This document shows positions 28,947-63,877 of a stretch of DNA of 64,000 nucleotides, piece by piece. The stretch lies in the IMG/VR virus record IMGVR_UViG_3300002168_000002, positions 1 through 64,000 of that record; one strand, 5' to 3'. The stretch's first letter is position 1. The number at the start of each line of letters is the position of its first letter. Position numbers and translations under genes: made by a program. This DNA comes from a virus. Lineage: Duplodnaviria > Caudoviricetes. Under the pieces are notes generated by a model. The model did not search any database, was not told the DNA's origin, and saw nothing but the letters and a program-made list of their open reading frames with translations.

Positions 28947-29235
28947 ATAATAAGAAAGAAATGTGTATAAAAGAACTACTTTATATTATATTGTTTATTA
29001 GAGGTATGATAACAGAAAAATATTTGAGGAAAATTTTAAAAAGGGGTTAACTTTTTGGAGTATGGAAAGTTAGTATTATATAGAACAACAAAAGGAGTGA
29101 TTAAAACAAAATAAAAGTTAGTTTTATCCAATGAAAAACTTAAAAATTTTTGAAAATTAGTATTGACAGGATAAAGGAACATATGGCTGGACTGAATTAA
29201 TGTTTAAATAATAAAATAATAGGAGGTTAACAACA

Positions 29236-29967
29236 ATGAAAACTTTGATTTTTGAAGGTGCAGGATGGGCAGATGCAGACACAAGCAAAGCAACAGATGT
29301 TGGTAATTGTAGAATTAGAACACGTTTAAGAAATAACAGCGGAAGGGTAATATATCTAGAAATGGGATGTTGTCATTTTGAAAATCCAAAATTTACTCCT
29401 GAATATGCGAAAGGCTTAAATTATGCTACACATATTGACCATTTATTCTATTGTGATTCAAAATGGGACGATAGAAGAAACTTTTCAAGAGAATTGCAGC
29501 CATTAACCAACATACATTTTGAATATAACAAAGACAATATTTTAAAATTTGTGAATGACAATTTAAACTGTTCATTTAATAATATGATAGTTTACAATAA
29601 TGGTGAAGTACGAGTGCATAACAGCGAAGAGCCATTATGCGATTCCAGTGATGGAAATTATATACCATACAAAGATATTGAAGTAAATATAAGCGAACTG
29701 GACGGAGTAAAGCCTATTCATGCTAAAGATTGGTATGCTGTATATAAAATCAGCTATAACAGTTTATCAAAATTACCATACATGAAAAAATATTTTGAAA
29801 ACCAATCAAAATGGGGACAAATTCCGAAAGAAGATTGTAAAGCATATTTTAGATGGGATAAAAACGGTATTATAACAGATTTGGAGTTACATGCAGGTGT
29901 TTGCATGGGAGTAAGTGCTGAAGATATAAAAACAATTATTGATTTAATAAAAAAAGATAACGCATAG
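29236..29967 (+). CDS. hypothetical phage protein
   Basis: 243 aa, RBS AGGAGG. Confidence 0.85.
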   Translation: MKTLIFEGAGWADADTSKATDVGNCRIRTRLRNNSGRVIYLEMGCCHFENPKFTPEYAKGLNYATHIDHLFYCDSKWDDRRNFSRELQPLTNIHFEYNKDNILKFVNDNLNCSFNNMIVYNNGEVRVHNSEEPLCDSSDGNYIPYKDIEVNISELDGVKPIHAKDWYAVYKISYNSLSKLPYMKKYFENQSKWGQIPKEDCKAYFRWDKNGIITDLELHAGVCMGVSAEDIKTIIDLIKKDNA

Positions 29968-30034
29968 TTTAATATTGATAGTGTAAATTATTTAAAGTAA
30001 AATATTACTATACCAGAATAACAGAGGTGATATA

Positions 30035-30289
30035 ATGGAATATACACAAGCAGAATTTTTGCAATTGATACAGCAGTATAACAGCACAGACCGTAAAATT
30101 ATAAAGGCTAATCTGAAACACATTATGGACATATATGGGATAAAACCTGCCGATATTATAGCATTAGGCTATAGTTCACGCAACGTATATGCATGGACTA
30201 ATCGAAGTACGAGTAATATACCGCTTTTTGAACAAGCATTAAATATTGCAGTAAAATTTAATTTCAGCATAACAGAATTCATAAAATAA
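30035..30289 (+). CDS. XRE-like HTH regulator
   Basis: NLKHIMD...LGYSSRNVYAW...P...IA. Confidence 0.6.
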   Translation: MEYTQAEFLQLIQQYNSTDRKIIKANLKHIMDIYGIKPADIIALGYSSRNVYAWTNRSTSNIPLFEQALNIAVKFNFSITEFIK

Positions 30290-30650
30290 TGTACAAAAAT
30301 TTCTAAATTAATATTGACAGTATAAAATTTGTGTGTTAGAATATAATATGTAAGGATAAAAAATTATATTAATATTTTAAATGAAAATTACATTTTATTG
30401 TAAAGGGTTCAAGTCATGGTAAGTGGATTCATATTTGCAAACTAGAAGAATATAGAAGTAAAATACTGCCGACAAAAACAAGTAATATTAATTCAAGTTT
30501 TTATTATCACAATGATTTTAATTACTTAACAGAATACATGACAAGAAATGATGTGTTAACTTTATGTGAAGTTTTGCCTGAATTTATCCAAAACATGACA
30601 TCAAAAATATTTTAAATAAATTTACAAATATTGAATAAGTAATAACAGGT

Positions 30651-31709
30651 TTGCGGTTATCCTGCACCAAAACCGCAAAATATAATAAAAAGGAGTATAG
30701 AACAATGAAAACTTTTGAATTTGAAAAACAAGGTATAAAATTTTCTTTTAGAAATCCCAAACTTAATGAATATGGGAAGTTAGTTATGGAATATAAAATA
30801 CCAGGTATAAAAGAGAATAAAGATAATTCAGAAGGTTATTTCTATAATTCTGAATTTTTGCCAGATAAAAACGTTATGACTTTCTATAATGTAAAGATAA
30901 AAGGTAAAACTTTTGGAGGTGTTGGATTACCTGAAGATATTTTAAAAGAAATAAAAACTCTTTTTGAAGAATTAAAAGCAGAAAGAGAAAGAAACATTAA
31001 TCAGGTTGTTACCGAACTGGTAGAAGGCAAAAGAAATATTCATTTTAGTATTGTTGGCTGTGATTATCCGCACTACCAAGCATGGATTAGAAATTTACCA
31101 GAAGATTTGCAGGGACTTGAACAAAACATTATGGAAAGAGCGATTAAAAAAATCATGGGTGAAAATGAGTTTGTGTCTAACCCTTGTGATTATATCCAAA
31201 GAATAGTTAAAAAATCTATAGGTACTATTGAAGACCTCGGAGAAGTTTTAAACCATGAATATAACAGCGAAGTTCAAAAATATCATGGGTTTAAGGAAAC
31301 AATTGTGACTGGCTTTGAAATGAATTTGAAATCTATATTACAACCATTTATTGAAAAGAAAGTAGATAAACAAAAAGAAAAACAATCTATGAAAGTTGAA
31401 ATTTTAAAACAAGGTTACACTCAAGGCGAAGAAAAAGACCCTTACGCAATAGTTAAAATAACAGACATACAAACTGGAGAATCAGCACAGTTTGTTTGTA
31501 GAAATATTTTTGATGTTGGGTATGTGATTAACCCTAATTTTTCTATAATAGAAGGATTAGAACCAGGTGGACTGCTTCATGATGGTAAATGGGAAACTTT
31601 TGAAGCAGGAAAAGGCTGGTATCCTGTGAGAGAAGCAACAGAATTTGAAAAAAAAGCTGTTGAATATTTGCATAAATTTCCACCTATTTTTTCTGGTATT
31701 AGGTTATAA
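30651..31709 (+). CDS. hypothetical protein (likely start 30705)
   Basis: long ORF, RBS before MKTF. Confidence 0.85.
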   Translation: MRLSCTKTAKYNKKEYRTMKTFEFEKQGIKFSFRNPKLNEYGKLVMEYKIPGIKENKDNSEGYFYNSEFLPDKNVMTFYNVKIKGKTFGGVGLPEDILKEIKTLFEELKAERERNINQVVTELVEGKRNIHFSIVGCDYPHYQAWIRNLPEDLQGLEQNIMERAIKKIMGENEFVSNPCDYIQRIVKKSIGTIEDLGEVLNHEYNSEVQKYHGFKETIVTGFEMNLKSILQPFIEKKVDKQKEKQSMKVEILKQGYTQGEEKDPYAIVKITDIQTGESAQFVCRNIFDVGYVINPNFSIIEGLEPGGLLHDGKWETFEAGKGWYPVREATEFEKKAVEYLHKFPPIFSGIRL

Positions 31710-32973
31710 CCAAAGTATAATTTGATTGAAAGTGAGTGTTTATAATGCTAAACGAGAAAAATAATTTAACGATCTTTGAATATCTTAGTCAATATTATGT
31801 ACTTCCTCAAAAAGATAAATCAAACGAAACAATCCTTAGAAGGATTCTTTTTAACAACTGCAATGTTATAAACTGGGATAATGTAAAACAAATTATAGAT
31901 GAACAGCATCCAGAAATGGCAGGGTATAAATGGAATGAAGATTGTATGTATAGATTACCATATGACCCGGCAACAAAAGAGAAGGTATAACAGAAAGGAG
32001 TATAACAGCATGACAAACAAACAAAAGAATCGTAAAGAACTAGAAGAAATTGCAGAGCGTATTGGAGATATGTATCTTATGGAAATGTTTTGGGATATGT
32101 TTGATATGTTGCCTGAATCAAAGCAAAAAATATTTATTAAACAGGCAAAAGAGATTGAGAAGAACAATAAGTTTTATTTTTATATTTTTTAATCTTGCTA
32201 AATGATGGAACTGAATTAGTAAGAATAACGAGAGCATAATTTTATATCAATATAAGGAGGTTTAAATTTATGAATAATTATATAACAGAACGTTGTTTAA
32301 AATTCAAGGTATATGGCGATATAACGACAAGCATTGTTTGTAAAATTGCTAACTTATTTATTGATAATGATATTGATTTTGTTGGATATTTTAGCGATGG
32401 TTATCATCCAGCAGAATTTACAGTAAGGCGAAGTGGTAAGAAATGGGATGATATAATTGACTTGATTAACAGTATTAAATCATGTAAGTATGAATATAAA
32501 AAAGAAACTTTTTATTTAACAAATGATAAAAGAAATGGTGTAATTGGAAATATGCAAATGGTTTGCAAATGTTAATATAAAAGGAGGCTATAATTAATAT
32601 GATTGGTTCATCAATAAATAGTTTTCCAAATATGCAATATCAATGTTGCAAATGTGGAAAAGATTTAGGTGATAAATATTCAAGGCTTAAAGGTAAAAAA
32701 CAACCTGATGTAAACATTATAAACGGTAAACAATATTGTAATAAATGTGCTGATAAGTATTGGAATGATTAATATAGGAGGTTATAATATGGGTTTTAAA
32801 ATAGGCGATAGAGTTGAAGTAAATTATCCTGTAGATGATTTTCAAGGACATGTAGGGATAGTAAAAAAAATTATAACAGACACAGAACTAATTCCTGGAA
32901 AAACGGTTGTTATGTGTTATTGGGCATTTTTAGACAAGGAAATAGCCTTTTATGAAAGTAGTCTTGATTTGAT

Positions 32974-32991
32974 ATAAAATAACAATTTTAT
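32974..32991. repeat. ATAAAA-N6-TTTKAT gene-boundary element (representative of about 20 copies)
   Basis: ATAAAA TAACAA TTTTAT overlapping the stop of 32747-32977; see findings for the list. Confidence 0.65.
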
Positions 32992-33614: not shown

Positions 33615-34315
33615 TTGAGATAAAACAATTATTTGATCACATTAACAGAAAGGAGTTTGATTTTAATGTATGGTAAAATGGTAATAATAGAAATCAATAA
33701 TACAAAATTTTGCTATTAGCAAACTGGAAAGAAAAGAAAAATAAAACAGAAGAAGGCTTTTATAAAACTATAAAGGAGTTAATTAAAATGGCAGATGATT
33801 TTGTAACAAAGTTTTATTTATATTCTCCTGGTGATCCTAGTGTTGGCATACATTCTATTGAGACAGAAATGGATCTATGTTTTGATGTTGGGGAAGGAGA
33901 AGAAAGGGAAGAATTGAGAAAACAGTTAAAAGAATTTTTTAGTGATTTGTATGACGATAATGTTAATATTGAATTTGAAGATGAAAGGCAGAGATGGATT
34001 AAATAAGAAAACAAGTGTGTTTAGAAGTAAAACATATAATAGATAATTTTACCTTTTAACAAATTAGCTGGAATAGCCCGGCAGAAAGGAGAAAAATATG
34101 ATTATTATTAAGAAAAAACCTGTATATATTAATAATCATAAGGTTAAATTCAACACTTATGATAGGTTTTTTCGTGGCAAATGGGACAACGATAATCCAA
34201 TTATGGATTATTGTATTCAAGTAAATAAATATGAAATAATCGAATTGTATAATAAAAACATGTTAGCAGGTGAAGTTAAAGAATATGTTGAAAATAAATT
34301 ATTGAAAGGAATAAA

Positions 34316-37392: not shown

Positions 37393-39196
37393 TTTTAAAA
37401 TGAAGCGGAGAGGGGTATAGTTATACCTCTCTCCGTTACATATGAAAGGAGGAATGTAAAATGACAGCAAGGCAATTTTTAGAGTGGGCAGGAGTAGAAT
37501 TTAACGAACATAACCTTTGGTTGTTAGGTGATTATGTCGGAAAATGGGGTGGCTATTTTGCTCAATTCCCCGATATGACGGTTTACACTGAGGATGGAAC
37601 GTATTTAGAAGAATGTGATGGAGAACCAGCAAATTTTCAAGAATATGTAGATGAAAGACAAGAAGATAATTTTTAAAAGGAGGGTGTGTTAAATGTACTA
37701 TCTTAAAAGTTCAATGTCAGATAGAATTAACTTTGATCAAATGGTTTATAATGTTCTCCAAGAAGTAAAATTTAATAGCTTACCGGAAGATGCAGAAATA
37801 TATTTTGATTTAACGGAAGAAAATTTTGTTGACGATATAGAAGAAGCAAAAGCAAGAATTGAATCAGTAGCGAGAAAAATTATAGCTGAAAATATTGAAG
37901 AAGTTTGATAATAAAATAAGGAGTTGTTTTAAAAATGATTAAAACTTTTAAAAATGGTAGTTACCAAGCGTTTTGTCCAAGGTGCAATGGGGAATTATTT
38001 TTTGTGTATGACGGAAAATATAGCGTTCATCATTGTAATTCTGGCATTAATTTACATGACAGAGATATGTTTAATGCTGGAGCAAGAGTAGAATATCCTT
38101 CTATAACCCATGCAAGAAACTTAATAAAAAGAATGATTGAACGACAAGAAGAGAATCATGATTATTTTGATTGTCATGAGAGGAGTATGCAAAAATGCAA
38201 GTAACAACGTAAAAGATGATTTGGTTTTGCATAGAATACAGGTATATTAATCTCAATGATCTGCTATACCTTTATGCAGTTAGAGAAAATAAGGGTTTTA
38301 TGCTATAATAAAAAAAAACAAAAGGAGATATAATTGATATGAAAAAAAATAAAACGAAATGGTATCTAGAAATAACGCCCGAAGAGTTATGGAATGAGTA
38401 TGTGCCTAATTCGGTTGAACTGTTTATCTCTAATTTTAATTATGATAATCCTCCTGTAACAGACATAAATAAAATGTGTAAAATTTACTCAAGAGAAATT
38501 TGTAATTCATTAGGAAAACCTTATACTGAAGAACAGAGAGAACATTTTGAAAATTTGCTGAAAGAATATATTTGTGGTTATATAAAAAAAGTGGGAGGAT
38601 ATGATAAATTAAGACTATATACAGAGGAACAAGTTGATGCCATAGATGAAGAAGATGTTAGATCATTATTTAATGATTTGTATAAACTTGAAAGAAAGTA
38701 TGAACAGGAATAAAATTTTAATAACAGGTTATATTACAACAGAAAGGAGATGATACTCAATGTCTAAAGCAAAAATTATAATAACAATTGAAAAAGAGTT
38801 TTCTTTTGACGAAAAAGAAGTAAATGGAGAAGAGGTTATAAAAAATTGTAAAAAAGCATTAAGAGAATTTCCTTATGATTTTTTAACAAAATGGGGAGAA
38901 AATACAGTTTTAGATGTAAGGGGAATTATATGTTGACAAAATTTTAATGTATAGTATAATTAAATCACTAAAATAAAATTATAGTATAACTAACATAAGA
39001 AAGGAAGGTTTGAGCAGTATATCAATAGTTATATTGAACAACAAAAGGGGGATTGAAAATTTAAAACTTCTCACTAAAGAGGAATTAGAAGAAATATGGG
39101 ATAATGAATGTAGTGCATTAATGAATATTTTAAGAAGGTATTAATAAAGAAATATAGATAACAGCAATAAATTTTTATTGACAGGAGGGTGTAATT

Positions 39197-41159: not shown

Positions 41160-41260
41160 GATAATTAATAGTGTTAATTTTGAAGGCGTTTATGCACTTT
41201 ACTTTTGTTTTAATGCAATAAAATGTGATTTTGATCTAAAATAAAAAGGAGTGAGTAATA

Positions 41261-42169
41261 ATGGCAAAACTTATAAAACCACTTTTTATTAATGGAATGT
41301 ATAACAAAGAAGGTAAACGCATTCGGGTAAATTACTTTAAAACGGTTGGGGAATATCCTCTATGGATTGAGGACGGAAAACCGAACAAAGATTATGCCAG
41401 AAATCCACAAGATAAATATTATATTTATATTCAAGTTGGCGAATATATTTTTACAAATGGAGAAACAGAATATGACATTATACAACAAGCTGGATATACA
41501 AAACTCAACAAAGAATGGTATGGTGATATTGAAGGAAGAAATAAGTTTTTTAATGAATTGCGTAAAGGTAAAACATATGAAGAATATAGTCCCTTAATCA
41601 AAGAACAAATTGACAAAGAGCAGGCATTTATTGATGAATATGGACAAAAGGAAGATGTTCAATTTGCATATTTAAAAGAAACGTATATTGACCGCCATAT
41701 TCAAAACTGGATAGATGCAAGAGATAACGGAGGAAAATTTGCAGATTTTATTGGAGCATTGTGTCTTGATGAATTAGATAAATGTCAAGAAATTGCAAAG
41801 GTATTAAAAATAAAAAGGCAAGAAAAGGAAAAAATATGGAAGGCAGAAATTGCAAAACAAAGAGCGAAAGAAGCTGAAGAAAAGGCAAAAGCTGAAAGAT
41901 TACTTATTGAAAAAACAGAAAAGATTTTTATAAATGGAGGTACAATAAAAGGTGGAGATATTATTGTTAAATTAGCAGACAAATATAATATAAATATTCC
42001 AATAAGAACGAAAGGATGGATATATGATTGTTTAGCTGAATGTACTATAACAGAAAATGGTGGAGCAAGCTATAGGTATTGGAAGAAGAAAAAAGGGACA
42101 AAAGGAAGTCAGAAGGTATATGATATCTTGTTTGATATTCGTAAAGCTATACAAAATAAAGTAACTTAA
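41261..42169 (+). CDS. hypothetical protein bounded by two 18-bp boundary elements
   Basis: 302 aa; elements at 41218 and 42171. Confidence 0.85.
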   Translation: MAKLIKPLFINGMYNKEGKRIRVNYFKTVGEYPLWIEDGKPNKDYARNPQDKYYIYIQVGEYIFTNGETEYDIIQQAGYTKLNKEWYGDIEGRNKFFNELRKGKTYEEYSPLIKEQIDKEQAFIDEYGQKEDVQFAYLKETYIDRHIQNWIDARDNGGKFADFIGALCLDELDKCQEIAKVLKIKRQEKEKIWKAEIAKQRAKEAEEKAKAERLLIEKTEKIFINGGTIKGGDIIVKLADKYNINIPIRTKGWIYDCLAECTITENGGASYRYWKKKKGTKGSQKVYDILFDIRKAIQNKVT

Positions 42170-42436
42170 TACAAAATACGGATTTCATGACAAAGAGATC
42201 AAAGACAAAGGGGTATGTAAAAATGAAATTTCAAACCGATGTTTTTACTTTATATGATGGGTTTAATAAAGTGTTGAAGGTGTTGCCAAGAGGAATAATA
42301 TTTTGTCTTTAAAATCCATAGAAACACTTGATAAACTAATAGGAAATGAAGATTTTATATTGCCAATAAAAGATGTTGATTAATTTATAATTTTATAATA
42401 TAGTAATAAAAAACAACAAAAATATAGGAGTTAATT

Positions 42437-42730: not shown

Positions 42731-42732
42731 GA

Positions 42733-44329: not shown

Positions 44330-44393
44330 TAGGGGAGATATTATAAAATTGTGATTTGATGACATTAAAAAAATAAAAAGGAGGTATAAATAT

Positions 44394-46445: not shown

Positions 46446-46464
46446 AATAAAGGAGAGATTTATT

Positions 46465-46845: not shown

Positions 46846-46854
46846 TAATAGAAA

Positions 46855-47442: not shown

Positions 47443-47580
47443 ATATGTCGAAATGTTTATATTGTAAAATAATTTATATATTATAAAATTAATAGAGATG
47501 TATTGATTTATATTTAATTTAATGTATAATTATATACAAACAACTGTTTGTATAAATAAATTTAAAATGGAGGAAGAGTA

Positions 47581-47871: not shown

Positions 47872-47955
47872 AAAATAATTTTATAATACATAATTTCATT
47901 GACTTTTACTTATAATTATAATAAAATACATAATTAAAGGAGGTACAATGAAATT

Positions 47956-49275
47956 ATGTTAAAAGAAAAACAAATTAAATTAAAAGAAAAACTTAAAAAT
48001 ATAATAGCGGAAGTAGGACATATTGTGGATATTAAACAAGAAATAGCAAATGAATTTCTTAGTAGAAATTTGCCAGCATATAGAGCTGCACAGGTTTTTA
48101 TGGGCAATGAATCACTAGATACTATTGGTGATTCTGAAGTTGATATTGGATTTTTATTTTTATTTTCTGTTGCCTTAAATAAAGCAGTAGAACAAAAAAC
48201 AAATCTAGGCATAAAAATAAATGTTGAAGATTATTTTACACAAATAGAAATTAAACAGTGGAGCAATTATAAAGAAGAAAAATTAAAAGATGATGTATAT
48301 CCTGTTATATTTGAAAATGTCCAACAAATTTCAGATCGAATTTGGCAAACCATTATAACAGCACAAGAGCTTGCAAAATTAGATGTTGAAAATTTGTTGC
48401 TATATAATTTTAAAACTCAACGATCTCCTAAAATAACTGTATCTGGTATAAAAATTGATTTTGATAAAAGAAAAATGATTGAGATTAAAAACAGAATATT
48501 AAATGGAGAACAATTTCCTGACCATATTAAGATAAATATCTTAAATAATTTTCAAGAAAAAATTCATTATGATCCTAAAAAACAAATCTTAACAATTGGC
48601 GAGGGTTCAACAATTAATATCTTTGACGGTTATCATAGAAAGGTAGCCAATTCCCTTGTTGTTGAAGAAAATCCCGAAATTAATTTTACTTGGGGACTTA
48701 TTATTACTAATCTATCTGAAAATGCAGCCAGGGATTATATGGTTCAGATTAATAAACAAAAACCAATTAAAAAGGAGCAAATAAAAGTATGGGATTTAAA
48801 CAAGAAGGAAAATCTTATTGTTAGTGTTATTGCTGATGATAAGATAAGCAAGCTTAATAAAGTAATGAAAGAACAAGATATAGAAATTAAATACGGTAGA
48901 GGACTAACTACAAAAAATATTATTGCAGAAGCCATAAAAGAAAATTATGTTTTGGACGATAATACTGATATAAGAGAGTTGGGTAGTTGGATTGTGACAT
49001 TTACTGATTATCTTTTTCATTTATATCCTAATGAATTTGTCGTTGGTAGAAATGAAAATTTTATGAACCATAAATATATTTTTTATGGGTATATTGCATT
49101 ATCCGCACAATTAAGAGGTAATAGTAATTGGAAAGAAGAAACTAAAAAAAAGATAGATAACATTAACTTTGATAAGAATAATATATTATGGAGAGATATT
49201 GGATTCACATCTAAAAAATTAAATAAAACATCACGTAATAAACTTTATAAGTTGTTTAGAAAGGAGGGTTTATAA
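47956..49275 (+). CDS. YopQ-like DndB/ParB-superfamily (DGxHR) protein
   Basis: YNFKTQR, IFDGYHR, QINKQKP; coupled to the MrpR-like gene. Confidence 0.7.
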   Translation: MLKEKQIKLKEKLKNIIAEVGHIVDIKQEIANEFLSRNLPAYRAAQVFMGNESLDTIGDSEVDIGFLFLFSVALNKAVEQKTNLGIKINVEDYFTQIEIKQWSNYKEEKLKDDVYPVIFENVQQISDRIWQTIITAQELAKLDVENLLLYNFKTQRSPKITVSGIKIDFDKRKMIEIKNRILNGEQFPDHIKINILNNFQEKIHYDPKKQILTIGEGSTINIFDGYHRKVANSLVVEENPEINFTWGLIITNLSENAARDYMVQINKQKPIKKEQIKVWDLNKKENLIVSVIADDKISKLNKVMKEQDIEIKYGRGLTTKNIIAEAIKENYVLDDNTDIRELGSWIVTFTDYLFHLYPNEFVVGRNENFMNHKYIFYGYIALSAQLRGNSNWKEETKKKIDNINFDKNNILWRDIGFTSKKLNKTSRNKLYKLFRKEGL

Positions 49276-50270
49276 TGGATATTATTTTTAAAAGAGATAA
49301 TGAACTTAAACAAGAATATTTAAGTACAAAACCAACAGCTACAGCAAAAGCAAATACGTTTGTTTTGCGTTTAGCTGATGAATATGAAAACTTAATTAAC
49401 AAATCAATTTATAACATGAATTATTCTGAGTTATATGAAATGCTTCTTGTACGATTTAAGAATTCTTCGGTAAGAACTATTATAAAAAACGTATCTATAC
49501 TAAAAAAATATATAGACTTTTGTTTGGATAAAAAAGTTGTAGAACATGGAGAAAACAGGTTATCTGTATTTACAAGAGAAGAAGCAAAAAGAATTGTGCA
49601 TAAACAAGCAATGTTAAATAAATATATTAGTAGAGAAAAACTTAGAGAGTATCAAAATATTTTATATAACGAACAAGATCAACTTTTGATTGAATTACCC
49701 TTCATAGGGGTTAGAGGTAGAACTGTAGAAAATGGAACATTGGAAGAAATAATTAATCTTACTATGCCTATAAAAAAAGATGAAGAAAATAACACTTTAA
49801 CTCTTGTACAAAACAATGGCAAAAGTAGAAGATTAGATGTAAAAACATCTACTATGGCATTAATAAGAAACACATATGAGCAAGAAGTGTATGTTGAAAA
49901 CAATAGTCAAGAAACAAATAATGTAAGATTATCATTTCAACCTAGAAAAATTCAAATTAACAAAGTAGAAAATTATGTACTAAGAGTGCCTGGGAAAAAT
50001 AAATACGAAAAATTTACTCCTAATTTACTTAATTCTAGAATGAAAAGAATCCAGAAGTATTTAGATAATCCTTATCTATCGTTTACTTCTTTGTATCAAT
50101 CAGGGATGATTCAGCTTGCGGTGGATAAGTATAAAGAAAATGGGGTTGTAACAAAAGAAGATTATATAGAAATTTGTATTAGGTTCAATTATGGATCGGG
50201 AAATCCAGAAAAGTATTGGTTTGAAGTAAAAGATTTGTTTAAACAGTATAAAAAGTTGTTGCATATGTAA
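49275..50270 (+). CDS. MrpR/YopR-like repressor (degenerate tyrosine recombinase fold)
   Basis: SAM-like N-terminus, FIGVRG...EEIINL, SLYQSGMI in place of HxLRH; synteny with the yopQ-like gene. Confidence 0.65.
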   Translation: MDIIFKRDNELKQEYLSTKPTATAKANTFVLRLADEYENLINKSIYNMNYSELYEMLLVRFKNSSVRTIIKNVSILKKYIDFCLDKKVVEHGENRLSVFTREEAKRIVHKQAMLNKYISREKLREYQNILYNEQDQLLIELPFIGVRGRTVENGTLEEIINLTMPIKKDEENNTLTLVQNNGKSRRLDVKTSTMALIRNTYEQEVYVENNSQETNNVRLSFQPRKIQINKVENYVLRVPGKNKYEKFTPNLLNSRMKRIQKYLDNPYLSFTSLYQSGMIQLAVDKYKENGVVTKEDYIEICIRFNYGSGNPEKYWFEVKDLFKQYKKLLHM

Positions 50271-51577: not shown

Positions 51578-52121
51578 AAAATATTTTCCAAATACTGAAT
51601 GGTATAATGAAAATTGTATATGCCCATATTGCGGTAATATTAATTTTGATTATAAAGAAGAAACATAGCTATTATGAAATATGGACTTGTAAAAATTGTG
51701 GTAAAAAATTCGGTGTAAAAATAGAAATTAAGAAAGTATTTATATATAAAACAGAAAAATTGTAATCAAACATGAGTTTTATTTAGAGATATAATACTAA
51801 CCAAGTTAGTAATATTTAAGGAGATGATTTAATATGTTTGTTATTTGTCAAAATGATTATCCAATAGGGATAGCACAAACTGAAAAAATAGTTAACAAAC
51901 AAGTAAAAGAACTGCAAAGAAAATTTGATTTATTGGATAAAAAATTAAATAGGAATGTATTTGGTAGATTATGTTATTTTCATTACTATGAATGTAATGA
52001 AATTGATATTAATCAAGTGTTATTTAAATTGTTTAATGGTTGGGACAAAGAATATATAATAAATTTATTGAAGGAATAAAATGGCTGAATTTCATTAACT
52101 TTTTGTTTTTAAGGAGATTAA

Positions 52122-52550: not shown

Positions 52551-52638
52551 ATAAATCGTGAATTCTGTTAAAAGGGATTGATTTTATCCGTTGTTGATAG
52601 AAGTTTATACCATCATTATGAAGGAAGGAGAATATAAA

Positions 52639-53544
52639 ATGGAAATAATCTACTCAGACAAAATGGGAAGCCGGTCTCGTTCATCCTGGGCTATTATTGT
52701 TGGGCCTGGGGATGAGCTGGAGCTATTTACTGGGAAAAGCATCCCGGGCAAGGTTGCTATTGTTGGAGAGGACTATAAAAAGGCCGGTAAGTGGAGTCAT
52801 TCTACATACCGTCTTGTTCTTGCCGAAGGTATCCAGTTTATTTCTGGGCATATGGGATGGGAGACAGGTACGTTTGTGGAAGGACTGGCGTCCGCTACTG
52901 GGATGCCCGCCAATAGATGGCATGAAGTGGCAAACGCCCTGAATGTATCACTCCCTGTGTTGCAGGAATTTCTCCGGGGCTGGAGGCCTAAAGCTGCCGA
53001 AAAACTTGATCAGATTGAAGAAGATTTGGCGAGCTTGGACGAAACATCTGACTCGGGTGCTACCACTGTCTCAATTTCGTATGGTGCGCCTACCCAGAAG
53101 CTACGTGAACAAGGCTTTTGGGAGTGGCCCGTCCGTATTTTAAACAGAGACAGGGAAGAGGTTGGTCGGGTGTCTCCAGAAGGTAAAGCTTTTGGAGAGG
53201 TAAAAGTTTTGAAAAGGCAGGAGTCTTCTGGTTACGGTGGGGGATATGTTTCTCTTATGCTGGCTGTTCCTGAGAACTGTCAGGCTGTTCACGGCCCGGT
53301 ACCAGGAGAAAAAACACGTGCCGAGAGGGAAGCAAAGTGTCGCCTTACCGCCGCCGCTGAAAAATGGTTACGGCTGTACGGTCAAAAAGCCGCACAAATG
53401 GCAATTAAAGATTATCCGTATGGTCGGGCAAGAATCCTATCCTATGCGGAACAACAGGGTTGCCCGATCCCCTCCGAGTATTCGTATCGTGCAAGTGACT
53501 TATGGAAATTTTTGGACGAGGTAAAATACCTCTTGGGAAAATAA
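52639..53544 (+). CDS. hypothetical protein, markedly GC-rich
   Basis: RBS AGGAG before ATG at 52639; visibly higher G+C than flanks. Confidence 0.8.
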   Translation: MEIIYSDKMGSRSRSSWAIIVGPGDELELFTGKSIPGKVAIVGEDYKKAGKWSHSTYRLVLAEGIQFISGHMGWETGTFVEGLASATGMPANRWHEVANALNVSLPVLQEFLRGWRPKAAEKLDQIEEDLASLDETSDSGATTVSISYGAPTQKLREQGFWEWPVRILNRDREEVGRVSPEGKAFGEVKVLKRQESSGYGGGYVSLMLAVPENCQAVHGPVPGEKTRAEREAKCRLTAAAEKWLRLYGQKAAQMAIKDYPYGRARILSYAEQQGCPIPSEYSYRASDLWKFLDEVKYLLGK

Positions 53545-53584
53545 AAAAGATATAATCGGGTTATAATCCTGACAGAAAGGAGAG

Positions 53585-54139: not shown

Positions 54140-54187
54140 TATTTATTTTAAAAGGATACTTTTATTAAAATATTAAAATAAAAAGGA

Positions 54188-55009
54188 GTGTTTTTATACA
54201 TATTGATTAAGTTAAATAATTTTTATATTGGTGAATCTGTGGAGTTTATGAGAGATAATATGTCAGATGAGTTTGTGGACTTAACAGTTACGTCTCCGCC
54301 TTATGACAGCATTAGAAAGTACAAAGGATTCAAGTTTGATTATAAATCTATGATTGAAGAGTTGTATAGAGTGACTAAGCAAGGTGGAGTTGTAGTGTGG
54401 GTGGTGGGTGATCAAACACATAAAGGTTCAGAGACAGGCACAAGTTTTAAGCAAGCATTGTATGCTATGAATGTCGGATTTAATTTGCATGATACTATGA
54501 TATATGAAAAATTAAACCCTATACCATTAACCCATAATAGATATGAGCAGTATTTTGAATATATGTTCGTATTTAGTAAAAATAAACCTAAAACATTTAA
54601 TCCAATAAAGGTTAATGTGAAAAATCCAAATAAACCTTATAAATGGAAATCTAAAGAGAAAGGTTCTTCTAAAAGAGATAGGAGTGAAATAACTTATTCA
54701 AAAAATAGTAAAATTAAATCTAATATTTGGATTTACGCTCTTGATGGAAATAGAGAACCTAAAAATCATCCTGCCCCATTCCCTGAACAATTAGCACATG
54801 ACCACATAATATCATGGAGCAACCCAGGTGATATTGTATTTGATCCTATGTGTGGCTCTGGAACAACATGCAAAATGGCATGGTTAAATAAAAGAAAATT
54901 CATAGGAATAGATATGAGTGAAGAATACATAAATGATATTTGTATCCCAAGGTTAGAAATGTATGGTTGGAAACAAGAAGAGAATAAGAATACTAATATA
55001 ATATTTTAA
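54188..55009 (+). CDS. DNA N4-C/N6-A methyltransferase (beta class)
   Basis: TSPPY, HPAPFP, DPMCGSGT. Confidence 0.92.
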   Translation: MFLYILIKLNNFYIGESVEFMRDNMSDEFVDLTVTSPPYDSIRKYKGFKFDYKSMIEELYRVTKQGGVVVWVVGDQTHKGSETGTSFKQALYAMNVGFNLHDTMIYEKLNPIPLTHNRYEQYFEYMFVFSKNKPKTFNPIKVNVKNPNKPYKWKSKEKGSSKRDRSEITYSKNSKIKSNIWIYALDGNREPKNHPAPFPEQLAHDHIISWSNPGDIVFDPMCGSGTTCKMAWLNKRKFIGIDMSEEYINDICIPRLEMYGWKQEENKNTNIIF

Positions 55010-56712: not shown

Positions 56713-56781
56713 TAAGAAAGGAGAGTTATAAAGTTGAAGAGGAATGAAGTGTGTAGTTGTTATGACAAGTATGGGGTATAG

Positions 56782-57501: not shown

Positions 57502-57945
57502 ATGAATATTAAAAATAAGAAAAATAAAAGGCGGGTAATTTATATGAAAAGATTTAAATGTACTGTTACAAGAGTTGATGAATACATTATTGAATTTGAC
57601 GAAAATAAAATTAACGAAAAATGGATGAAAGAGTTTAGAGATGAATTTTATAATTTCAATAATTTAAGAGAACATGCAGAACATATTGCACAACTAAGAG
57701 CAAGATTCGGAAGTAGTTTTTTGGAAGGATATGGTTATGTTTTAGTAGATAATAAAGTACCTTTGATGGCAACAGATAAAGATATAATTGAAGATGGTAT
57801 AAACATTCAAATAGTTAGTGAAGATGTAGATTGTAAAATTAAAGTAAAGAAATTAAATGAAAGAAGAATATTTCTTAAACTTATTTTTTGGTTAGGATTG
57901 ATTGGTGGTGGATTATGGTTATTTAAATATTTTGGAGTATTTTAA
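57502..57945 (+). CDS. hypothetical protein with C-terminal TM segment
   Basis: 147-aa ORF. Confidence 0.7.
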   Translation: MNIKNKKNKRRVIYMKRFKCTVTRVDEYIIEFDENKINEKWMKEFRDEFYNFNNLREHAEHIAQLRARFGSSFLEGYGYVLVDNKVPLMATDKDIIEDGINIQIVSEDVDCKIKVKKLNERRIFLKLIFWLGLIGGGLWLFKYFGVF

Positions 57946-58235
57946 TAAAAACTAGTTTGATTAAAATAATAAAAGGAGTTTTTAAATATGTTATATGAAA
58001 AAGAAGATATTGGTGAAAAAATTTATTTAATAGGTGCGTTTAATGATCTTTTTATAGTAACGAAACTCAATTTGAAGTAGTATTAACTCGACAAGTAGGT
58101 GATATATATAAAGATATTAAACTTGAAGAAGAAATCCAATAAAATAAGAGTTTAGATTACAAAAATAAAAGTATTGACAAAGTATAAAATATATGGTAAT
58201 ATATGAGATGAATAAATTAAAGAGGAGAATATTAA

Positions 58236-60428
58236 ATGCGTGTACTATTTTTAATGCGAGGCGCACCAGGAGTAGGCAAAAGTACATTTATAAAAGAAAA
58301 TAATCTTGAACAGTATTCTTTATGTGCCGACAACGTTAGATTATTAATTCAATCTCCTGTTTTAGATATAAATGGAAATTGGACTATCAGCCAAAAGAAC
58401 GATAAAAGAGTATGGGAATTATTGTTTACTATGCTTGAAGATAGAATGAAACGTGGAGAATTTACAATTATTGATGCAACAAATAGTAAAACAGTTGAAA
58501 TGAACAGATATAAAAAATTAGCTGATAAATATCGTTATAGAAAATATTTAATTGATTTTACAGATGTTCCTATTGAAGTAGTAAAAGAAAGAAATAGAAA
58601 TAGAAATAGTTACAAAATAGTTCCTGAAGAAGCTATTGATACAATGTATGCAAGATTCAAAACTCAAAAAGTTCCAAGTGGATTTATTGTAATTAAACCA
58701 GAAGAATTTAAAGAAACAATCAATAATATTTATTCTATTAGAGATTTTTCCAACTATAATAAGATACACCATATAGGAGATCTTCATGGTTGTTTTACTG
58801 TATTAAATGAGTATTTAAAGAATGGGTTAGAAGATGATGAATTGTATATTTTTGTTGGCGATTATCTTGATAGGGGTATAGAAAATGCCGATGTTCTTAA
58901 ACTTCTATTAGAAATTTATACAAAAGAAAATGTGATACTACTTACGGGTAATCATGAGCAATATCTATATAATTATGCTCATGATCTTCCTGGAGTAAGT
59001 AAAGAGTTTGAAATAAATACAAGACCACAACTAATAGAAGCTAATTTTGATAAAAAAGATGTTAGACAACTTTACAGGAAGTTTGCACAATTCGCTTATT
59101 ACAAATATTATAACAGGATTGTACTTGTAACTCATGGCGGGTTAAGTTGTATACCAGATAATTTTGTCTTTATTTCTACTGAACAATTAATTAAAGGTAT
59201 CGGAGATTATAAAGATATGGGAAAAATAAATGAATCGTTCCTAAAAAATACAAATAAAAATGTTTATCAAATTCATGGTCATAGGAATGAGTCAGGTTCC
59301 CCGATACAAATTAATGAAAGGTGTTTTAATTTGTGTGGTAAAGCAGAATTTGGAGGCACTTTAAGAATAGTTACATTGTCGAAGGAAGGATTTGAACGTA
59401 TTGAAATCCCTAATACAGTTTATAAACAAATAGAAAAAAGAAGTAATAGTATAGATGGTATTACTATAGAAAATCTAGTTCGTCTTTTAAGAGATAATAA
59501 ATATATTCGAGAAAAGAAATTTGGAAATATATCTTCTTTTAATTTTACCAGAGACGCATTTAACGATAAGATATGGGATAATATAACTACAAAAGCAAGA
59601 GGTTTATTCATTAACACAAACACCAATAAAATTGTGGCAAGAAGTTATAATAAATTTTTTAATATAAATGAAGTAGAAGAAACCAAAATGAAAAATTTGC
59701 AAAACTTACTTGCCTATCCTTTACGTATATATGTTAAATATAATGGATATTTAGGGATAATAGGTTATGATGAAGAAAATGATGATTTAGTAATTACATC
59801 TAAAACATCATTAACTGGTACTTTTTCAGATAATTTTAGAAGAATATTTAATAATAAAATAAAAAACAAAGATTTTATGAAAAAATATTTAAAAGAAAAT
59901 AATTTATCTTTTGTAGTTGAAGTAATTGATCCAATTAATGACCCCCATATTATTGAGTATGAAAATGAAGATATTATTTTGTTGGATGCTATATATAGAG
60001 ATATGAATTATAAGAAATTATCTTATGATGAATTATTATTTGTAAGTGAGTTGTTTAATTTGAGTATTAAAAAGCTTGCATTTATTATGTATAATTGGAA
60101 TGATTTTTATAATTGGTATGAAAGTGTTACAGTAGATGATTATAAATATAATAATAAATATATAGAAGGATTTGTAATAGAAGATGCCAATGAATTTATG
60201 TTTAAAATGAAATTAGCTTATTATAATAACTGGAAGTTTATGCGTAATGTAAAAGATAGTGTTGCAAAACATGGAGCAATTAGATATACAGGAGCTTTAA
60301 CTACAAAAAAACAAAATATGTTTTATGGTTGGTTAAAAGAATTACCAAAAGAAGAATTGGAATTAGATATCATTACTTTAAGAAAGAAATTTTTAGCTGA
60401 AAAAGAAAAAGTGTTAGAAGTAATATAA
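58236..60428 (+). CDS. polynucleotide kinase - metallophosphoesterase - RNA ligase fusion
   Basis: GAPGVGKS; GDLHG, GDYLDRG, GNHE, HGH; KYNG, EGFV, KMK ligase motifs. Confidence 0.88.
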   Translation: MRVLFLMRGAPGVGKSTFIKENNLEQYSLCADNVRLLIQSPVLDINGNWTISQKNDKRVWELLFTMLEDRMKRGEFTIIDATNSKTVEMNRYKKLADKYRYRKYLIDFTDVPIEVVKERNRNRNSYKIVPEEAIDTMYARFKTQKVPSGFIVIKPEEFKETINNIYSIRDFSNYNKIHHIGDLHGCFTVLNEYLKNGLEDDELYIFVGDYLDRGIENADVLKLLLEIYTKENVILLTGNHEQYLYNYAHDLPGVSKEFEINTRPQLIEANFDKKDVRQLYRKFAQFAYYKYYNRIVLVTHGGLSCIPDNFVFISTEQLIKGIGDYKDMGKINESFLKNTNKNVYQIHGHRNESGSPIQINERCFNLCGKAEFGGTLRIVTLSKEGFERIEIPNTVYKQIEKRSNSIDGITIENLVRLLRDNKYIREKKFGNISSFNFTRDAFNDKIWDNITTKARGLFINTNTNKIVARSYNKFFNINEVEETKMKNLQNLLAYPLRIYVKYNGYLGIIGYDEENDDLVITSKTSLTGTFSDNFRRIFNNKIKNKDFMKKYLKENNLSFVVEVIDPINDPHIIEYENEDIILLDAIYRDMNYKKLSYDELLFVSELFNLSIKKLAFIMYNWNDFYNWYESVTVDDYKYNNKYIEGFVIEDANEFMFKMKLAYYNNWKFMRNVKDSVAKHGAIRYTGALTTKKQNMFYGWLKELPKEELELDIITLRKKFLAEKEKVLEVI

Positions 60429-60520
60429 AAAGGAGTGTGATATTATTGAATCTTATTGAAGTTATTAAGACTATTCGGAGCGATATTTCTAAGCTAGAAA
60501 GAAAACGAAAGATTTAATTA

Positions 60521-60883
60521 TTGATTATAATAAAAATAAAAAGGAGGATGTGTAGCTTGAATAAAATTACATATAAACTTACAGATTTAAAAAATAAAAA
60601 AATCGTAAATATAGAAAAAATTTGTGCTGAATATGGAAGAACTTATGATTATTATCTTTGTTTTACATGTGATGATGGTAGTAGAGTTATATTATATGGT
60701 GGAGAACCTTATAATCCTAATCCTAGTCTTGAAGAAATGAGAAAAGTTGATTTCTTTACACCAGAAGAAATTGGGGAAAAGTTAGAACAAATTGAACGTG
60801 AAAAAAGACATAGAAAACAACAAGAATTAGAAGATAAAAAAAGACAATTACAAAAATTAAAAAAAGAACTTGGTGAAATTTAA
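60521..60883 (+). CDS. hypothetical protein
   Basis: RBS AGGAGG, coiled C-terminus. Confidence 0.7.
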   Translation: MIIIKIKRRMCSLNKITYKLTDLKNKKIVNIEKICAEYGRTYDYYLCFTCDDGSRVILYGGEPYNPNPSLEEMRKVDFFTPEEIGEKLEQIEREKRHRKQQELEDKKRQLQKLKKELGEI

Positions 60884-61444
60884 ACTGATAAATATCAAAA
60901 ATATAATAATTTTCCAGAAGTATTAAGGAGGATAAATATGAATAGCATTTCTGCTTCGGGGCAAGGTTTGTTGGTACTACAAATTAAATTGTAATCAAAT
61001 ATCGTTTTAAAAATTTGGGGAAAAGTTATTGAATAAAAAATAAAGGTAGGAAAATTAATTATGTGGGGAAAAATTAAAACTTATTTTCGCAAACATGATT
61101 TCGATTTGAATAATAATGAAATAGTAAGTATTGATTTTGACAATGGTAAGTCTTTTAAATTTCCAAGATATACATGTAAAAAGTGTGGTAAAAAATTGTG
61201 TCTTGATTTGTGGCAAATTAAACAATTACCTTGGGACATGGCAAGGGGTTGCCCAGGTAAAAAGTCTATATAATAAAAACTAAAGATTAGTAATATAATA
61301 ATATTAAGATTTCTTAACATGAAAAACAGAGAATAAAAGAGCATACGTGAGAATAAGAGAGTTTAATTTTCCAATATTTGAATAAAACAGCGATTTTATT
61401 TAAATATTAAATTATCAATATAAAAATAAGGGGGGGGGAAGTAA

Positions 61445-62551
61445 GTGTATAAAATTAATGATATAATAAATACAATTATACAGGGACATGTTTTAGATGT
61501 TCTAAAACAAATACCAGATGAATCAATACATATGTGTATTACATCCCCTCCATATTGGGGATTAAGGAATTATTCTACTAATCCGCAAATATGGGATGGG
61601 AATGAGAGCTGTAATCATAAATGGGGAAATAATATTAAAATAAAACAAAGTGGAGAAAAAGGACATAAGCAAGATACGAACAGGGGAAGTTGGTTTGAGT
61701 CATCAACATATTTTTGTGTTAATTGTGGCGCATGGAAAGGTGAGTTAGGAAATGAACCAACATATCAATTATACATAAATCACTTGATTCAAGTATTCGA
61801 TGAGATAAATCGAATACTTACAAAAGATGGAACGTGTTGGGTTAATCTTAGCGATAGTTATGCAGGAAGCAATCAGAGAGTAGGAATTAAAAATCCTACA
61901 CATAAACAAGCAAGTAATAGAGGAACTAATTATATGAGTAGTCCTAATCATAAAAGTATATTGAGTAAAACGAATATTAAAGCAAAATCATTAATAGGGA
62001 TTCCAGATAGATTTAAAATCGCAATGATTGATAATGGATGGATATGTCGTAATGAAATTATATGGCACAAACCAAATCAGATGCCGTCAAGTGTTAAGGA
62101 TAGGTTTACTGTAGATTATGAGAAATTGTATTTCTTTACCAAAAATAAAAAATATTATTTTGAACAGCAGTTGGAACCTTTAGCTGATGTAACTATAAAA
62201 AGGGATAAATACACAAGACAAACCAAAAAAGGAAAAACAGCACAAGAAACCCCATATGCTGTTAGTCATTTACACGATAGTAAAAGCAATCCTAAAGGTA
62301 GAAATAAACGTTCTGTTTGGTCAATTAATACTAAACCATTAAAAGATGCTCATTTTGCAGTATTCCCTCCTGATTTAGTTGAAATACCTATTAAAGCAGG
62401 ATGTGTTGAAGAAGGAATTGTAATTGATCCATTTATGGGTAGTGGTTCAACCGCTATAAAAGCAATGGAATTAAATAGAAATTATGTGGGTATTGAATTA
62501 AACCCAGAATACATAGAAATTGCGAACAATAGAATTAAAGAAATAATATAA
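61445..62551 (+). CDS. DNA N4-C/N6-A methyltransferase (beta class)
   Basis: TSPPYW, IIWHKPN, HFAVFP, DPFMGSGS. Confidence 0.92.
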   Translation: MYKINDIINTIIQGHVLDVLKQIPDESIHMCITSPPYWGLRNYSTNPQIWDGNESCNHKWGNNIKIKQSGEKGHKQDTNRGSWFESSTYFCVNCGAWKGELGNEPTYQLYINHLIQVFDEINRILTKDGTCWVNLSDSYAGSNQRVGIKNPTHKQASNRGTNYMSSPNHKSILSKTNIKAKSLIGIPDRFKIAMIDNGWICRNEIIWHKPNQMPSSVKDRFTVDYEKLYFFTKNKKYYFEQQLEPLADVTIKRDKYTRQTKKGKTAQETPYAVSHLHDSKSNPKGRNKRSVWSINTKPLKDAHFAVFPPDLVEIPIKAGCVEEGIVIDPFMGSGSTAIKAMELNRNYVGIELNPEYIEIANNRIKEII

Positions 62552-63002
62552 AAGTTGCTCTTTATATAATGCACACTGGCTAAAGGATATTGCAAGACAA
62601 GTGAGATAGCAGAAAAAAAGATTGTCAATGTAGTTTTAATATAGAACTTCGATTTTATTAAAATATATATTTAAGAAAATTTTATAATTGAATATAGGTT
62701 TGATAATTAGGAGGTAATAATAATGGGAAAACCAAAATGGTTAATGACAGAAGAAGAAAAGGCAGAAGAAGTTAAGAAAAGAATAAAGAGAGCAGCTACA
62801 GCTATGTATAATGCTTGTAAAATATCTTATGAAGAAAATAGGTGTAAAGGATGTCCGTTTAGTGTTTCAATAGGATGTAAACTATATGATCCTCCTATTA
62901 GTTGGAAGAATAAGATTAAAGAATTAAATACAAAATTAAAATAAAACAATAATATATTTGCTTTGGCAATGTCATTGCTTTAGCATAGAAAGGAGTTAGA
63001 CT

Positions 63003-63359
63003 ATGGGAGTAGATTGGTATCCTTGTAAGAGTTGTGGTAAAACATTTCCTGATAGTGGTCATTATGTAAGTTGCCCATATTGTAGAACCCATTGGTGTAA
63101 TTATAAGTGCGCAGAAAAAGATGGATATATGGAAGATCAATGTAAATTGGGATATGAAGTCATTGAAGGTTACGAACAAAATGAAGAATGTGAAGAATCG
63201 GATAAAAATAGTTGTTTTAAGTGTGATAACTATATAAAAGGTGGATGTAAATATTGCCGCCAAGAAGATTTTGAAGACGTTATATTGTTAGATTATTTAT
63301 TACAATCATTAAATAAGACTAGAGAAGAACTAATTACTGAATATAAAAAGACATTATAA
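63003..63359 (+). CDS. Cys-rich hypothetical protein
   Basis: multiple CxxC. Confidence 0.75.
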   Translation: MGVDWYPCKSCGKTFPDSGHYVSCPYCRTHWCNYKCAEKDGYMEDQCKLGYEVIEGYEQNEECEESDKNSCFKCDNYIKGGCKYCRQEDFEDVILLDYLLQSLNKTREELITEYKKTL

Positions 63360-63545
63360 AAAGAGTTTCTTGATTACTGTAAATATAGAAGTATTCCTGT
63401 AGTTGGGTACGTTAATTTTAGAAGAAGTAAAATACTAAAACCAATTCAATTTAAAAAAGAATATGAATGCACTTGGATTAAATAATATAACCAAACGTTA
63501 ACTTAACTTATAATATAAATATAAAAAAGAGATAAGGAGTAAAGT

Positions 63546-63821
63546 ATGACAAGAGGAGAATTGGAATATGCGGTTCGTCAAGCCCTTAATAACCTTGATA
63601 AATGGAATGATATAACTGGCTACCTTCAAAAAGGAACAAGTTATTATTATGAGATTCAAGGTATAATTGAAGATGCTGTAAAAATAGGTTCTAAAATTGC
63701 TATTGAAGGTATAAATGCTGATTTAAGTGATATTTTTGAACCTGATGAAGAGACAAAAGATACGGAGTTTAAAAACTTCAATGCATTCTTAATAGACAGA
63801 AAATTAACGGGTCACACTTAA
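63546..63821 (+). CDS. hypothetical protein
   Basis: RBS AAGGAG. Confidence 0.7.
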   Translation: MTRGELEYAVRQALNNLDKWNDITGYLQKGTSYYYEIQGIIEDAVKIGSKIAIEGINADLSDIFEPDEETKDTEFKNFNAFLIDRKLTGHT

Positions 63822-63877
63822 AATTAGCATCAATATTGTGTTTTATCACATTATTAAAATAATAGGAGGATGTTAAC

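Follow-up and report, generated by a model that had tools for sequence, protein, structure and literature searches.

Background

The closest described analogue of the repeated element reported here is the system of dif modules (pdif) on Acinetobacter plasmids, in which modules are shuffled in a XerC/XerD-dependent manner (PMC13141974, PMC6449649, PMC9947245). Our element is a palindromic motif, ATAAAA-N6-TTTKAT, located at gene boundaries in the first 64 kb (hereafter the window, i.e. the whole stretch of 64,000 nucleotides analysed) of a single 108,575-bp virus contig, IMG/VR record IMGVR_UViG_3300002168_000002. The contig has a GC content of 28%, is estimated to be 66% complete and derives from an SPbeta-like plasmid-prophage of a low-GC Firmicute. 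The element is a conserved protein site that marks the borders of gene modules and very probably helps to create them.

A pdif-bearing replicon holds many 28-bp sites, each with two arms around a variable 6-bp spacer. Discrete gene modules are bracketed by these sites and occur in different contexts with junctions at the sites, and alleles with an identical spacer recur in different contexts. The motif resembles pdif in these respects and in its inner arm bases (TATAA-N6-TTATG in pdif, TAAAA-N6-TTTTA here). It differs in having symmetric arms, with neither the XerC/XerD asymmetry nor alternating C/D modules, in the conservation of only 6-7 bp per arm outside SPbeta, and in copies that are tied to stop codons and ribosome-binding sites. 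Symmetric arms resemble those of single-recombinase Xer systems. A further difference is that the replicon is a phage with its own Xer-type genes, and that the system is known here from sequence alone.

An earlier inspection of the window (the original prediction) proposed an integron-like cassette array. The likeness lies in co-oriented genes that are each followed by a repeat at or overlapping the stop codon, and in a tyrosine recombinase gene on the same element. However, the motif measures 18-28 bp as opposed to 57-141 bp for attC and has no single-strand fold or extrahelical bases, and many of the supposed cassettes have their own promoters. The contig offers no attC-type folded site and no IntI-specific integrase, and neither a unique attI-like site nor a Pc was found; the integron comparison fails on the structure of the site and the type of enzyme. 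The likeness to Tn916-type integrase sites also fails, since Tn916 targets show a T-run followed by an A-run around about six variable bases, the opposite of the order in the motif. T4-type PeSL cassettes and lambdoid boundary sequences are short conserved gene-border sequences that were proposed to shuffle small accessory genes. PeSLs consist of promoters and stem-loops and boundary sequences are short homologies lacking a fixed bipartite geometry, whereas the motif is a strictly spaced palindrome that contains neither a promoter nor a stable stem-loop.

The stoperators of the cluster A mycobacteriophages L5 and Bxb1 (PMC9283540, PMC6550527) likewise comprise 20-30 or more copies of a short site in the short intergenic spaces of temperate phages and are conserved across a diverse group. 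Stoperators are, however, asymmetric 13-bp sites in one orientation with a known monomeric repressor, whereas the motif is a palindrome that coincides with mosaic breakpoints. A second intergenic repeat of the same phage family is SPBRE, the MrpR operator of SPbeta (PMC10516654), an AT-rich partial palindrome that often adjoins a ribosome-binding site and whose reader has a tyrosine-recombinase fold. As derived here from SPbeta, SPBRE reads approximately ATACA-N7-TGTAT. It differs from the motif in sequence, in its conserved spacer, in copy number (about 10) and in its position at promoters; the ATAAAA palindrome is thus a second, separate SPbeta repeat (13-14 copies) that is not among the peaks of MrpR chromatin affinity precipitation sequencing (PMC10516654). 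No description of the motif was found in the literature searched.

Results and discussion

Enrichment and anatomy of the motif

As expected under the original prediction, the motif is enriched over an AT-matched background. The intergenic segments of the contig contain 12 exact copies against 0.34 ± 0.57 in dinucleotide shuffles of the same segments, and 22 copies with at most one mismatch against 5.8 expected, while coding DNA of the contig is not enriched (9 versus 16.3 expected). Seventeen of the 18 exact sites in the contig are intergenic. The window as a whole has 45 strand-matches with at most one mismatch, compared to 21.7 ± 5.7 in shuffles. The spacer is fixed at six bases, with 29 matches at this length versus 0-13 at any other in this genome, and 127 versus 1-11 in a relative, G001. 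The six spacer bases (N6) are unconstrained, and motif positions 3 and 16 are degenerate. In SPbeta the half-site is symmetric over 11 bp (TYTRA-ATAAAA), which gives an 11-6-11 layout of 28 bp, i.e. the two 11-bp arms and 6-bp spacer of pdif; in the present genome, conservation outside the 6-bp core is limited to a T at -5/-4. Half-sites around a fixed six-base spacer are the geometry of a tyrosine-recombinase site of Xer/dif type, and this part of the original prediction holds.

Among copies whose 5' arm is not also a stop codon, arm variants are equally common on the two sides (14 and 18) and are never compensated. For five of the eight copies that were folded, the result was no better than for shuffles, while a few with extended arms reached -4 to -5.4 kcal/mol. 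Because the variants are symmetric and uncompensated and folding is weak, the element is best seen as a symmetric protein site in double-stranded DNA; a hairpin, whether in RNA or as a cruciform or attC-like fold, was ruled out on the same grounds.

Gene-boundary location and overlap with the upstream stop codon, both claimed originally, were borne out. Across the family, 38 of 87 perfect copies use the motif TAA (bases 2-4) or base 1 as part of a stop (open reading frames, ORFs, of at least 40 codons), and in G001 and a second relative, G002, the 3' arm runs directly into AAGGAG. The genes are co-oriented and several junctions have their own TTGACA-N17-TATAAT promoters. Gaps that hold a sigmaA-type promoter, tRNA gene or terminator follow the order end of upstream unit, motif, promoter and Shine-Dalgarno (SD) sequence. 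The distance from motif to -35 box varies from 11 to 31 nt, which rules out a fixed activator or promoter role.

Copies in the window

The quoted sequences are present at all 20 positions of the original prediction. When graded by mismatches to the pattern, 12 of the 20 fit with at most one (30381, 32974, 33620, 38284, 41218, 44343, 51765, 54148, 61382, 62548, 62641 and 63829) and the other eight are weak: 29110 and 57944 need a 5-base spacer in order to match, two mismatches are present in each of 31709 and 42171, and 55009, 58139, 60501 and 63357 are poor, with 2-3 mismatches within one arm. Copies do occupy the proposed span of 29110-63846, but the array is wider, with the first good copy at 24014 and the last at about 88100 of the contig, past the end of the window. 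The copies considered here are as follows.

24014-24031, exact copy (ATAAAA-TGACTA-TTTTAT), adjoining the SD sequence of gene 24048
28967-28984, one mismatch, 21 nt past a stop
30381-30398, ATGAAA arm (degenerate position 3)
32974-32991, exact; the TAA stop of gene 32789-32977 forms motif bases 2-4
33620-33637, exact, TTTGAT arm, 5 nt past a stop
38284-38301, one mismatch, overlapping a sigmaA-like promoter (TAGAGA-17-TATAAT)
41218-41235, exact, TTTGAT arm, 25 nt ahead of gene 41261
42171-42188, weak (ACAAAA ... TTTCAT), immediately past the stop of gene 41261-42169
44343-44360, exact, upstream of a gene for a 683-aa protein (44394-46445)
47867-47884, ATTAAA arm, overlapping the stop of gene 47581-47871 and 14 nt ahead of a TTGACT -35 box
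51765-51782, exact in the opposite orientation (ATCAAA ... TTTTAT)
54148-54165, one mismatch, 9 nt past a stop and ahead of DNA methylase gene 54188
57945-57961, variant with a 5-base spacer (ATAAAA-ACTAG-TTTGAT), overlapping a stop
61382-61399, exact, palindrome reaching 12 bp per arm, ahead of methylase gene 61445
62548-62565, one mismatch; the TAA stop of methylase gene 61445-62551 forms bases 2-4
62641-62658, one mismatch, ATAGAA arm
63829-63846, one mismatch, 8 nt past a stop and 32 nt ahead of gene 63878

Three relatives (G001, G002 and G003) keep a copy upstream of the gene orthologous to that of the 683-aa protein, with a different N6 in each.

Mosaic breakpoints in Bacillus relatives

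The contig has no close relative in the phage collection or IMG/VR (best protein identity 74%; 2-3 genes shared per 22 kb), and breakpoints were therefore analysed in Spbetavirus genomes that bear the same motif. There, gains and losses of genes break exactly at the motif, in agreement with the original prediction. Between SPbeta and phi3T, the 3.2-kb yopW-yoqD block is 99.97% identical from motif base 1 to motif base 15, identity at yorT|mtbP begins from motif base 1, and identity at yotB|yotC starts at the motif edge. At the yorZ end the 18-mer is identical, including N6, and the DNA on both sides is unrelated.

Among five Spbetavirus genomes, where modules were likewise found in different contexts, 13 of 23 alleles shared by at least two genomes (57%) have an unrelated flank (at most 52% identity at the edge) directly at the motif edge. 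The corresponding values for control 18-mers were 5/184 at stop codons (p = 5e-11) and 2/180 at positions 20 nt past stops (p = 1e-12). Identity ends 0-2 bases outside the motif in 33/33 distinct pairs at the left edge and 0-3 bases outside it in 24/27 distinct pairs at the right edge. The breaks are located in the arms or at the motif edges; the original expectation that they lie inside the 6-bp core was not borne out, as none is visibly inside it. Synteny is broken at 38 of 45 motif junctions compared to 252 of 565 other junctions, significantly so in three of the five genomes.

N6 goes with either flank, and the same N6 with both flanks unrelated was seen in 17 distinct pairs (6 alleles). 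Exchange between pdif modules needs matching spacers (PMC13141974), and frequent identical-N6 alleles with unrelated flanks are what a comparable need would produce here.

A published study of laboratory phi3Ts-SPbeta hybrids contains a single non-homologous junction, N1. By conversion of the coordinates in its Supplementary Table 1, calibrated on junctions 8 and 11, N1 maps to the ATAAAA arm of the copy at position 116414 in SPbeta. Several of the 'homologous' blocks in the same study are bounded by motif copies.

Distribution across phages

A total of 63 IMG/VR loci were gathered through homologues of the 683-aa protein. Perfect palindromes were counted in each genome together with a control, the same pattern reversed.

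G001, 138 kb, complete: 53 (53-57) motif copies, control 0
G006, 69 kb: 16, control 0-1
G013, 167 kb: 16, control 0
G002, 15.5 kb: 11, control 0
G003, 154 kb: 7 plus 7 G-variants, control 0-1
Clostridium phage c-st, 186 kb: 13-15, control 1-2
SPbeta, 134 kb: 13-14, control 1
phi3T, 128 kb: 14, control 1
SPR, 131 kb: 12, control 0
BUCT083, 134 kb: 18, control 1
SPbetaL2, 134 kb: 16, control 0

Another 33 related records have 0-2 copies. In the early region of G001, 41 of 67 junctions carry the motif with at most one mismatch. Five Clostridia genomes showed no enrichment (5-14 copies versus 7-21 in the control), and a host transcription-factor site was rejected for these five genomes since their counts equal the control; a pattern scan of species genomes returned scattered single matches only. 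The counts in the family set against those in the Clostridia indicate that the motif is specific to phages and extends across the SPbeta family, in Bacillus as well as in Clostridium, and as such it is a hallmark of this phage group.

Candidate readers of the motif

Gene products were assigned by Pfam and structure-sequence searches. Two proteins of the window were proposed originally as the enzyme or reader of the sites.

6878-7714, minus strand, Xer-type tyrosine recombinase of 278 aa (Pfam PF00589, 6e-35; closest relative of known structure XerA 4A8E, 1.5e-37)
49275-50270, plus strand, MrpR/YopR-like repressor with a recombinase fold, judged not to read the motif

The XerA match of ORF 6878-7714 covers the whole length of the protein, whereas its IntI4 match covers only 46 residues around the active site. 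The protein is XerA/XerC-like and its gene stands beside ParM- and FtsK-like genes, which suggests plasmid dimer resolution; no link between it and the sites was found. Xer-type tyrosine recombinases are encoded in every motif-bearing genome. The YomM orthologue, located in the late tail cluster, retains the catalytic residues; YomM-like proteins are 56-60% identical among G001, G003 and G006, where most shared proteins are below 35%, but identity drops to 24-30% in c-st, in G013 and in G005, which is free of the motif. Phylogenetic profiling across the genomes found no protein or regulator family whose distribution cleanly matches that of the motif: G003 lacks YonO, and a close YomM-like protein is confined to G001, G003 and G006.

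MrpR operators, offered originally as the alternative, were rejected because the MrpR peaks in SPbeta all lie at SPBRE (PMC10516654), which differs in sequence, and because the most motif-rich relative, G001, lacks MrpR. YonO has one promoter in SPbeta, upstream of yonK (PMC5467207). A YonO promoter or terminator was rejected as well, since there is no motif copy near that promoter and four copies inside the YonO-driven late operon are read through. An HU/IHF-like reader was discarded, given that HU-like genes occur in motif-positive and motif-negative phages alike.

Gene content of the contig and neighbouring features

The minus strand encodes the genes up to about 12 kb, and the plus strand those from about 12.9 kb on. 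Searches with the YonO-like protein matched SPbeta, c-st and phages of gut Firmicutes. Further products of the window are:

588-1334, 248-aa partner downstream of the YonO-like polymerase, matching a c-st ORF annotated as the C-terminal part of YonO
1312-4116, YonO-like single-chain RNA polymerase (PF05183)
58236-60428, 730-aa Pnkp-like fusion of P-loop kinase, metallophosphatase and T4-type RNA ligase domains

The polymerase and its partner also form a pair in G001, G006, G013 and c-st, and in c-st and G006 the pair is present as two split ORFs. The Pnkp-like fusion suggests tRNA repair against host anticodon nucleases. The window also encodes a helicase, FtsK/SpoIIIE-like and ParM-like proteins and several N6/N4 DNA methylases, and the order MazF/PemK toxin, small ORF, YopQ-like and MrpR-like (47038-50270) is that of CST027-CST030 in c-st. 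Beyond the window, the contig encodes an NAD ligase, DnaB, a PolIII alpha subunit, a ribonucleotide reductase and a large serine recombinase; the contig lacks the tail module. Two IMG/VR records from different samples (L005, 154 kb, and L029, 349 kb) are 100% identical over 13.6 kb at a contig end, so that they represent either one phage or an assembly concatemer.

Nine paralogous N6/N4 DNA methyltransferase genes are present in this one phage, most of them bracketed by motif copies.

54188-55009, methyltransferase gene
61445-62551, methyltransferase gene
64797-74825 of the contig, methyltransferase genes
89537-90244 of the contig, methyltransferase gene

A motif copy also stands between yorT and the methylase gene mtbP in SPbeta. 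Methylase gene 61445 has, in place of a normal SD sequence, nine consecutive G residues (about 61425-61440) immediately ahead of its GTG start, a tract that could be prone to slippage.

The strongest repeat in the window is a 34-nt promoter-like sequence, GGTTKAYTTTTT-N12-AAGTTAGTATTATAT, with 13 plus-strand copies between 16424 and 34808, most of them placed after a terminator T-run and about 30 nt before a start codon. This class-1 promoter, together with terminators, was what de novo expectation maximization on intergenic DNA first found, and a search seeded with the originally listed sites gave only small families until the pattern was handled as bipartite. Just upstream of the first class-1 copy, a 247-aa ORF (15606-16349) has a C-terminal sigma-70 region 4 or LuxR-type helix-turn-helix (about 2-3e-6) and is likely a phage sigma factor. 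An AU-rich leader, TAAAATAAAAAGGAG, recurs ahead of many start codons, both after class-1 promoters and after motif copies.

41236-41260, example of the leader
44361-44393, example of the leader
54166-54187, example of the leader

In SPbeta a similar leader, TTAGAGTAAAAATAAAAT...GGAGG, follows several motif copies.

Two further features of the window and one of SPbeta were recorded. A Pistol self-cleaving ribozyme (19072-19143) lies between two small early genes and matches Rfam RF02679 over the full model length (61.1 bits versus a gathering score of 34.5). A GC-rich island at 52600-53550 (44-53% GC versus about 25% around it) holds one ORF of 301-317 aa with no Pfam match, which looks like a recent foreign gene. 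In SPbeta, the 1.7-kb stretch from yonN to yonK (59153-60833), downstream of the YonO start site, is gene-free and markedly GC-richer and looks like a large structured RNA.

Interpretation and alternative explanations

Part of the original prediction is retained, namely the tyrosine-recombinase geometry, the location at gene boundaries and the coincidence with breakpoints, while the integron, breaks in the 6-bp core, ORF 6878-7714 as the demonstrable enzyme and MrpR are not. An unlikely but credible alternative is an array of stoperator-like operators, at which a dimeric phage repressor or insulator would block or insulate transcription at gene junctions in the plasmid-prophage state. Such an array would suit the symmetry of the site, which fits a dimer, and the many copies in short intergenic spaces of long co-directional operons, in early and late clusters. 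There are precedents in the scattered mycobacteriophage repressor sites that stop elongation (PMC9283540, PMC6550527) and in SPBRE/MrpR of SPbeta, copies of which also adjoin ribosome-binding sites. Breakpoints would then collect through microhomology of the arms and the survival of exchanges at gene borders, yet such a passive role does not readily explain base-precise breaks at 57% of shared alleles. No regulator family follows the motif across genomes and MrpR is excluded, the variable placement of copies 11-31 nt upstream of sigmaA promoters is poor for repression, and the YonO-driven late operon of SPbeta is read through four copies (PMC5467207). Far less probable, indeed very improbable, is an expression signal, be it a promoter for a phage sigma factor or a YonO-like polymerase, a terminator, an RNA hairpin or an intercistronic processing site. 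Copies do stand just upstream of ribosome-binding sites and of the AU-rich leader TAAAATAAAA-GGAG, and the few extended-arm copies do fold; but the 3' arm adjoins the SD sequence in G001 and G002 and leaves no room for a start site, the symmetry with uncompensated arm variants and the poor folding of 5/8 sites do not fit, the YonO promoter region of SPbeta is without a copy and its late operon reads through copies (PMC5467207), and the separate class-1 promoter motif is quite different.

The palindrome might instead be a passive linker, a short conserved 'boundary sequence' whose primary role is another one (DNA bending, stop-codon or leader context, or a binding factor) and at which relaxed homologous or microhomology recombination, for instance by phage Sak4/RecJ-like proteins, acts without a dedicated site-specific enzyme. 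Similar ideas exist for the boundary sequences of lambdoid phages and for the PeSL cassettes of T4. We regard this as rather unlikely. Its appeal is that crossovers fall at shared arms or edges and never demonstrably within N6, that N1 is a 6-bp ATAAAA microhomology join, and that several copies share a longer similar leader downstream (class '-nR'). Six bp are, however, very short, and in the controls the Shine-Dalgarno/leader motif, although repeated just as often, did not coincide with breaks to a comparable degree. The strict N6 spacing and the 11-bp symmetric half-sites point to a dedicated binding protein, and identical-N6 alleles in unrelated contexts exceed the yield of two independent microhomology events. 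On the favoured reading, exchange would be site-specific rather than driven by microhomology. The passive-linker and stoperator explanations stay alive on account of the short arms outside SPbeta, the spacers that differ within a genome and the microhomology-like N1.

The Xer/dif-like reading is favoured because of the geometry, the identical-spacer alleles in different contexts and the orphan Xer-type enzymes; that the motif is a module-exchange site of this kind is plausible, at a little short of an even chance. Several observations weigh against it. About 90% of the SPbeta/phi3T block boundaries lie away from the motif, and the excess of synteny breaks at junction level is only about twofold. 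Sites within one genome differ in N6, a mismatch that would prevent classical Xer exchange among them, and the arm conserved outside SPbeta, at only 6-7 bp, is short for binding by a tyrosine recombinase. Distant motif-bearing phages have the motif unchanged, yet their recombinases share only 21-27% identity, and a recombinase is proposed as the reader from sequence comparison. Exchange at the window's own copies is likewise suggested by family-wide conservation, and the GC-rich island at 52.6-53.5 kb was rejected as a motif-bounded cassette, its borders not being at motif copies. Lastly, on the phi3Ts side N1 falls in a nearby ATAAAA hexamer and not in the phi3Ts motif (error about 3 nt), and it looks like microhomology joining rather than precise site-specific exchange.

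Under the Xer/dif-like reading, the element would be a protein-recognition palindrome in double-stranded DNA, with two ATAAAA-type half-sites facing each other across six free bases, and would serve as a module joint of the SPbeta-like family between the upstream stop and the promoter or ribosome-binding site of the next gene. A dimeric phage protein would bind the arms, the most plausible candidate being a Xer-type tyrosine recombinase (YomM- or YopP-like in SPbeta; ORF 6878-7714 here). DNA broken and rejoined where arm meets spacer would allow co-resident SPbeta-like genomes to swap blocks in which every gene keeps its own stop and start signals. More tentatively still, and with the odds against it, we propose a dedicated Xer-like module-exchange system extending from Bacillus to Clostridium phages and their gut relatives, in which 12-57 dif-like palindromes, seated precisely between a stop codon and the following gene, would be cut and rejoined by a YomM-/YopP-like tyrosine recombinase.

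Conclusions

How tailed phages swap modules cleanly is an old open question that goes back to the 'linker sequences' of the modular theory. The palindrome described here is conserved in phages as different as the model phage SPbeta and a botulinum-toxin-converting Clostridium phage, and in uncultured relatives. If the proposed system is real, phages would have their own equivalent of plasmid dif modules, and their mosaicism an enzymatic basis. The idea can be tested directly, as SPbeta and phi3T are genetically tractable and the orphan tyrosine recombinases YomM and YopP are candidates. Should such an enzyme act on the motif, it would represent a new route by which accessory genes for defence, anti-defence, methylases and toxins flow in large temperate phages and phage-plasmids.

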